DNA of 64,000 nucleotides from Escherichia coli (GTDB taxonomy: Bacteria > Pseudomonadota > Gammaproteobacteria > Enterobacterales > Enterobacteriaceae), in the NCBI RefSeq assembly GCF_003334815.1, contig NZ_QOWO01000003.1; one strand, given 5' to 3'. The notes under the pieces were generated by a model that made no database searches, was not told the DNA's origin, and saw only the letters and a list, made by a program, of their open reading frames with translations. Numbering within the stretch: position 1 is the stretch's first letter; each line of letters opens with the position of its first letter. A program made the translations under genes and the position numbers. Positions 35,325 through 35,368 of this stretch are shown here, piece after piece.

Positions 35325-35368
35325 TGCAGGACGACCTGCAAACGCCTCTTTTCACCGGGGACGGCCCC
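35325..35368 (+). promoter_or_regulatory. guanidine-II riboswitch (mini-ykkC) in the gdx leader
   Basis: Two short GC hairpins each capped by an ACGR tetraloop (tgcagg-ACGA-cctgca at 35325-35340; gggg-ACGG-cccc at 35357-35368) with 16 nt linker, 8 nt before the gdx Shine-Dalgarno. Confidence 0.7.

Follow-up and report, generated by a model that had tools for sequence, protein, structure and literature searches.

The sugE/gdx locus

The window analyzed here, a stretch of 64,000 nucleotides of Escherichia coli DNA, contains the genes epmB, efp, ecnA, ecnB, sugE, blc, ampC and frdD in this order. The DNA is chromosome of the E. coli K-12 type; the 499 bp around sugE showed 100% identity with the MG1655 sequence and were found in 5,425 of 5,426 complete E. 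coli genomes. Coordinates of the genes and elements considered are given in Table 1. The 105-amino-acid product of sugE (gdx) matched the NCBIfam SugE equivalog NF008512 with 193.5 bits (cutoff, 126), residues 1 to 104 aligning with positions 1 to 104 of the 104-position profile; the EmrE and Qac models scored far under their cutoffs on this protein. The equivalog match, together with the position at the E. coli sugE locus, supported the proposal of the initial annotation that the downstream gene encodes a guanidinium exporter.

Table 1. Features of the sugE leader, its surroundings and the other RNA genes detected in the window
Feature	Position	Strand	Description	Basis
tRNA-Phe(GAA)	21063-21138	-		
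ecnA, ecnB	34829-34954, 35065-35211	+	Entericidin A/B small-lipoprotein pair, directly upstream of the riboswitch	
Intrinsic terminator of ecnB	35217-35252	+	12-bp stem (hairpin 35217-35244) followed by TGTTTTTTCT; outside the riboswitch	
Candidate sigma-70 promoter of sugE/gdx	35277-35304	+	TTGAAA, 16-nt spacer, TG-CAAAAT	Consensus scan
P1 hairpin	35323-35342	+	8-bp stem UUUGCAGG (35323-35330) / CCUGCAAA (35335-35342), tetraloop ACGA 35331-35334	Rfam alignment
P1-P2 linker	35343-35356	+	CGCCUCUUUUCACC, 14 nt, sequence variable	
P2 hairpin	35357-35368	+	4-bp stem GGGG (35357-35360) / CCCC (35365-35368), tetraloop ACGG 35361-35364	Rfam alignment
Predicted OFF-state helix competing with P2	35358-35393	+	GGGACGGC (35358-35365) with GCC (35380-35382) and GUCCU (35389-35393)	Minimum-free-energy fold
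Shine-Dalgarno (SD) GGAG	35377-35380	+	6 nt before ATG 35387; kept in orthologues	Labelled SD in PMC13064478 Fig. 1
sugE/gdx CDS	35387-35704	+	105 aa (codons 35387-35701), SMR-family guanidinium exporter	NF008512 match; RefSeq annotation of identical K-12 sequence
Two tandem tRNA-Gly(GCC) genes	50872-50947, 50984-51059	+	Start-to-start distance 112 nt	

The strong terminator of ecnB, a gene which ends at 35211, bounds the sugE unit on its 5' side. According to a review, the original 'suppressor of groEL' phenotype behind the name sugE may be due to ecnB (PMC12186494). Two minus-strand open reading frames antisense to ecnB (35063-35314 and 35119-35301) lacked support and were rejected. From the sequence we infer a promoter for sugE/gdx at 35277-35304, from which the transcript would start near 35311. 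The sigma-70 consensus scan returned one site where 1.2 were expected by chance, a weak indication by itself, and the TTGAAA region of this candidate was kept in a Citrobacter-derived plasmid copy of the locus.

A 155-amino-acid open reading frame (35237-35704), already dismissed as spurious in the initial annotation, starts at a GTG within the hairpin of the ecnB terminator. Its N-terminal extension had no profile support and RefSeq has the 105-aa coding sequence, and the longer frame is a mechanical artefact. Extended versions of SugE, ranging from 139 to 155 aa, are nevertheless present in some public entries, and the sugE gene of plasmid pSTM709 is annotated with 145 aa. In RefSeq, these E. 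coli genomes had no annotated feature for the riboswitch leader described below. Since RefSeq has no such feature and several entries extend the SugE reading frame through the leader, flagging the riboswitch improves the annotation.

The guanidine-II element in the sugE leader

Two hairpins capped by ACGA and ACGG tetraloops had been reported just before the gdx SD, and the sequence agreed with this description base for base. The separation of 16 nt given for them holds for a 6-bp P1 (35325-35340); with the 8-bp P1 of the Rfam alignment and of the crystal construct, the distance becomes 14 nt. A linker of this length is inside the range of 7 to 40 nt, without conserved sequence, reported for the guanidine-II family (PMC5558903). 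Both tetraloops are closed by GG/CC pairs within a longer stem, and the exact pattern GGACGRCC-N22-GGACGRCC, comprising 16 conserved nucleotides with the two conserved G-C pairs that close each loop, was located at 35329-35366. The spacer between the end of P2 and the GGAG of the SD is 8 nt.

The whole window was scanned with Rfam 15 at gathering thresholds, and four matches were obtained, three tRNAs and the Guanidine-II (mini-ykkC) family RF01068. This covariance scan, which the initial annotation had put forward as a check and as a possible refutation, was passed clearly: the match at 35323-35369 on the plus strand reached 50.4 bits (gathering score, 32), with an E value of 5.2e-7 for the 64-kb window, and extended over model positions 1 to 48 of 48. 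In a permissive scan (E ≤ 1) of 34800-35800, no Rfam family besides RF01068 was detected on either strand. Every feature that defines membership in this family and is testable in silico was present.

The potential for a chance occurrence was examined with shuffled sequences and with a specificity control. A single GGACGRCC octamer was unremarkable (2 observed versus 3.2 expected); two such octamers on one strand at a distance of 7 to 37 nt occurred in none of 100 dinucleotide-preserving shuffles of the window, which is a 51% GC context. In the control, 100,044 species genomes were searched for GGACGRCC-N7-37-GGACGRCC and at least 121 matches were obtained. Only 3 of the 121 among the matches listed had extended stems, and the other 118, nearly all of them in GC-rich genomes, did not. 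The matches listed included no enterobacterial leader. Two of the three extended-stem matches were directly upstream of a Gdx homologue, and two were above the Rfam Guanidine-II threshold. The third fell below that threshold; its linker measured 31 nt, and a Gdx homologue was located 25 nt downstream. These results indicated that the double octamer by itself mostly arises by chance in GC-rich genomes and is not diagnostic, but that the motif, the stems and the gene context together are. The element in the gdx leader is considered real because all three are combined there and because the covariance model scores motif and stems jointly.

Conservation was examined within E. coli and in related genera. 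The 90-nt leader (35311-35400) was present at ≥95% identity in 5,412 of 5,426 complete E. coli genomes, and no match to it was obtained in 13. Two polymorphisms were common in E. coli, C35346G in the linker and C35374T in the spacer after P2, both outside the hairpins. Position 35346 is a C in the window and a G in O157/CFT073-type strains and in the consensus of four aligned strains. The linker sequence differed among E. coli strains and also among genera. Eight orthologous gdx loci were fetched via the protein, from Citrobacter sedlakii, C. amalonaticus, E. albertii, two Enterobacter sp., two Kluyvera and Cedecea neteri. All eight leaders scored at or above the RF01068 gathering score, with values of 34.7 to 44.9 bits and the same placement before gdx. 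A Guanidine-II match of 47.2 bits was also detected before a Citrobacter-derived sugE gene located beside blaCMY-42 on a plasmid.

Analysis of a 10-sequence alignment detected compensatory changes at three pairs of P1 (U-A to C-G, G-C to A-U and A-U to G-C), with double changes in 10 cells. In this stem 95.8% of cells were paired, and the covariation score was reached by none of 500 shuffles, in a sample of only 10 related sequences. No double change was found in any slid register of P1 in the same alignment. P2 was invariant in 9 of the 10 enterobacterial leaders, with one substitution in E. albertii, and was uninformative on covariation.

The same RNA has been the subject of published structural work. 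Huang, Wang and Lilley crystallized 'E. coli P1_8bp', UUUGCAGGACGACCUG(BrC)AAA, with guanidine as PDB 5NDI (PMC5486947). The RNA of this entry, UUUGCAGGACGACCUGCAAA, is identical to window positions 35323-35342 and hence to P1, letter for letter (PMC5486947). Schamber et al. utilized NMR and SAXS to examine a 49-nt E. coli SugE aptamer (Gdn49) with ACGA in P1, ACGG in P2 and the native linker; a KD of 130 μM was obtained by NMR, and new guanidinium-dependent G-C pairs were attributed to a loop-loop contact (PMC9300104). In its two GG-ACGR-CC caps, its 14-nt linker, the distance of the SD from P2, its ACGA and ACGG loops and the Gdx gene downstream, the element in the window is the same as the E. 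coli sugE/gdx guanidine-II riboswitch of these studies.

In an alternative explanation, the resemblance to a riboswitch would be due to chance, with two GC-rich hairpins having no regulatory role or being part of a real 155-aa protein initiated at GTG 35237. The preponderance of accidental double octamers in GC-rich genomes (118 of the 121 among the matches listed) and the N-terminally extended SugE entries in databases could be taken in its favor. The covariance score, the absence of the pattern from all 100 shuffles, the retention of the element with compensatory changes in every orthologue tested, the failure of the extension to find profile support and the location of its GTG inside the ecnB terminator, and the structural and binding data published for the same RNA (PMC5486947, PMC9300104) already refute it, and its probability is negligible.

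Genetic evidence on the function of the leader has also been reported. The E. coli mutant ZX-1 of Kojima and Ito has a 20-bp deletion, delAGAATTGGGGCCGTCCCCGG (PMC13064478). The reverse complement of this deletion corresponds to window 35355-35374, so that P2 and the next 6 nt are lost. RNA-seq detected constitutively high gdx RNA in ZX-1, and guanidinium was found to enhance Gdx-dependent caesium resistance (PMC13064478). In reviews, E. coli is named as a guanidine-II host and the riboswitches of this class are regarded as translational ON switches (PMC5558903, PMC12186494). Ligand binding, loop-loop dimerization and constitutive gdx upon loss of P2 are thus published. The constitutive phenotype of the P2 deletion and the enhancement of a Gdx-dependent phenotype by guanidinium are indirect evidence that gdx is turned ON by guanidine in vivo in E. 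coli (PMC13064478).

Overall, the element is almost certainly the guanidine-II riboswitch of E. coli gdx, with the ON-switch logic of its class, in agreement with the initial annotation, and no result was contrary to this identity. This riboswitch is already known and is textbook rather than new. A known regulatory RNA was therefore called correctly from the sequence alone, and the locus is a useful positive control for a genome scan.

Predicted OFF state and rival switching mechanisms

The element almost certainly works as a translational ON switch. P2, with its weak 4-bp stem, would in the absence of ligand be largely lost to an alternative pairing involving the ribosome-binding region; in the best prediction, the 5' half of P2 would pair with the last part of the SD and the surroundings of the start codon, and little Gdx would be produced. 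At guanidinium levels of at least roughly 0.1 mM, each ACGR tetraloop binds one cation and the two loops pair with each other through their C and G; this kissing of P1 and P2 would hold P2 as a hairpin. The SD and AUG would then be freed and Gdx, the guanidinium/proton antiporter that exports the toxic cation, would be translated.

The minimum-free-energy fold retained P1 and replaced P2 by two pairings, GGGAC (35358-35362) with GUCCU (35389-35393) and GGC (35363-35365) with GCC (35380-35382), the latter trinucleotide consisting of the last SD base and CC. The folding predictions placed P2 in 10 to 18% of the ligand-free ensemble. Enforcing both P1 and P2 had a predicted cost of 1.2 to 1.5 kcal/mol relative to the competing helix, a gap which ligand-stabilized kissing could plausibly close. 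Opening of the ribosome site was predicted to cost 0.9 to 2.7 kcal/mol less when P1 and P2 were held, and deletion of P2, as in ZX-1 or in the natural variant strain 167 described below, lowered this cost by about 1.4 to 3.9 kcal/mol in all but one of six cases. The direction of these effects in the accessibility modelling was as expected, but they were small, depended on the cut point of the transcript and were not decisive. The first two SD bases were predicted to be paired in every state. A local hairpin of the SD region (35374-35381 with 35389-35396), predicted when P1 and P2 were held, exhibited no covariation and only 77% pairing and was rejected.

Across the 10 leaders, 87.5% of the cells of the competing helix were pairable, a level of conservation confounded by that of the aptamer consensus and of the first codons. 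No covariation was detected in this helix across the 10 leaders, and it was broken in three Enterobacter/Cedecea leaders, in which codon 2 is GCC. The modelling tentatively suggested, with a confidence that falls a little short of even, an OFF state in which the last part of the SD and the surroundings of the start codon are masked by the 5' half of P2, P2 being both sensor and repressor strand and the linker not acting as anti-SD. If P2 has both of these roles, its loss would derepress gdx and thereby account for the phenotype of ZX-1. Masking by P2 is a refinement of a known switch and not a new kind of element, because a similar stem has already been proposed for Gloeobacter violaceus (PMC5486947).

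The published drawings of the E. coli switch show a different OFF state, and it is in this respect only that the present analysis departs from them. In these, the CUCU of the linker (35346-35349) acts as anti-SD on GGAG, and the kissing of P1 and P2 draws the linker off the SD. Such an arrangement has been drawn for E. coli (PMC9300104) and for P. aeruginosa (PMC5558903), and the four CUCU:GGAG pairs, one of which is G-U, can be formed in the window. The linker pairing was, however, absent from the predicted ensemble. Only two of its four pairs were consistently formable across the 10 enterobacterial leaders, with no compensatory changes, and the common C35346G allele of O157 and CFT073 eliminates its G-C pair and leaves the predicted opening cost unaltered. 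Furthermore, ZX-1 retains the linker and is nevertheless constitutive (PMC13064478). An anti-SD role of the linker is hence unlikely, and masking by the 5' half of P2 is favored over it for E. coli and its close relatives, with a confidence still somewhat below an even balance.

Control might also be exerted mainly at the level of transcription or of the mRNA, either through intrinsic termination or pausing at P1 and the following CGCCUCUUUU or through exposure of an untranslated leader to Rho or RNases. A terminator scan flagged P1 with the U-rich linker, the ZX-1 phenotype was detected as raised gdx RNA in RNA-seq (PMC13064478), and Guanidine-III has been reported to govern RNase E access besides translation (PMC12186494). 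As the ZX-1 result is an RNA-level measurement, the deletion may act via mRNA stability or Rho-dependent termination. A terminator at P1, however, would be stabilized by the ligand and would produce an OFF switch, opposite to the biology, and its U-run is interrupted (CUCUUUUC) and is missing in the Enterobacter, Kluyvera and Cedecea orthologues. The terminator was rejected because of this lack of conservation and because its polarity is wrong for an ON switch. The location of P2 at 8 nt from the SD is the typical layout of a translational switch, and better translation can itself raise RNA levels. Control mainly at the transcription or mRNA level is thus distinctly improbable, more so than the linker model, and the translational switch with masking by the 5' half of P2 remains the preferred interpretation.

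The other guanidine-II systems provide points of comparison for this OFF state. The P. aeruginosa and G. violaceus riboswitches have the same aptamer architecture, with loop-loop dimerization and one guanidinium per loop. Both of their loops are ACGA, whereas P2 of E. coli has ACGG, reportedly the weaker of the binding sites (PMC9300104). In G. violaceus, the proposed stem-loop overlaps P2 and the ribosome site and is exclusive with the folded aptamer, which is the logic of the competing helix predicted here (PMC5486947). In P. aeruginosa, by comparison, the anti-SD has been assigned to the linker together with the 5' strand of P1 (PMC5558903).

Natural variants and related RNAs

The switch governs guanidinium export, and mutations in it are reported to raise tolerance to caesium and ionic liquids. 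Truncations occurring naturally or on plasmids could therefore alter the expression of a biocide-related efflux pump. One such variant was detected in E. coli strain 167, a urinary isolate (NZ_CM132950.1, 2490-2561), in which a 29-bp deletion equivalent to window 35344-35372 has removed the linker and P2. P1 stands directly before CUCCGGAG and the ATG in this strain, an arrangement that resembles ZX-1 and was the sole such case among the matches listed. If masking by the 5' half of P2 is correct, the deletion is predicted to make Gdx constitutive.

A second truncation was present on pSTM709, an IncI-gamma/K1 blaCMY-2 plasmid (1436-1566). The mobilized blaCMY-2-blc-sugE segment ends within P1, at about the equivalent of window position 35334, and the 5' arm of P1 and the ACGA loop have been swapped for unrelated sequence. 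No Guanidine-II match was obtained with Rfam in the pSTM709 sugE leader, in contrast to the CMY-42 plasmid, on which the switch was intact (47.2 bits). The truncated pSTM709 leader is predicted to be non-inducible. The CMY-42 plasmid also carries a sok antitoxin RNA of the hok/sok family (RF01794, 96.9 bits) at 464-621, about 1 kb upstream of sugE.

The P2 of Escherichia albertii (locus 537-583) reads GGGU-ACGG-CCCC, with a U in place of the conserved G of the loop-closing pair. The Rfam score of this leader was 34.7 bits, barely over the gathering score of 32, and Gdx consists of 102 aa in this species rather than 105. The switch of E. albertii may be weakened by the substitution.

Three further guanidine riboswitch classes, Guanidine-I (ykkC, RF00442), Guanidine-III (RF01763) and Guanidine-IV, share the ligand and the regulon of Gdx/SugE exporters and guanidine carboxylase with Guanidine-II, but their folds are unrelated to it. 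Guanidine-I, a transcriptional switch, is larger, and Guanidine-III folds as a pseudoknot. The Rfam scans gave no match to the Guanidine-I and Guanidine-III models in the window. A Deinococcus sp. plasmid carried a sugE homologue preceded by a Guanidine-III element (47.8 bits; locus 512-585), and a Rhizobium oryzicola locus contained a Guanidine-II and a Guanidine-I element about 3 kb apart (6978-7028 and 9809-9916). These two cases illustrate the control of the same gene set by unrelated guanidine aptamers.

The remaining RNA genes detected in the window were tRNA genes (Table 1). At the position of the tandem tRNA-Gly pair, K-12 presumably has three tandem Gly genes (glyV, glyX and glyY), and the tRNA-Gly copy number in the window may differ from that of K-12.
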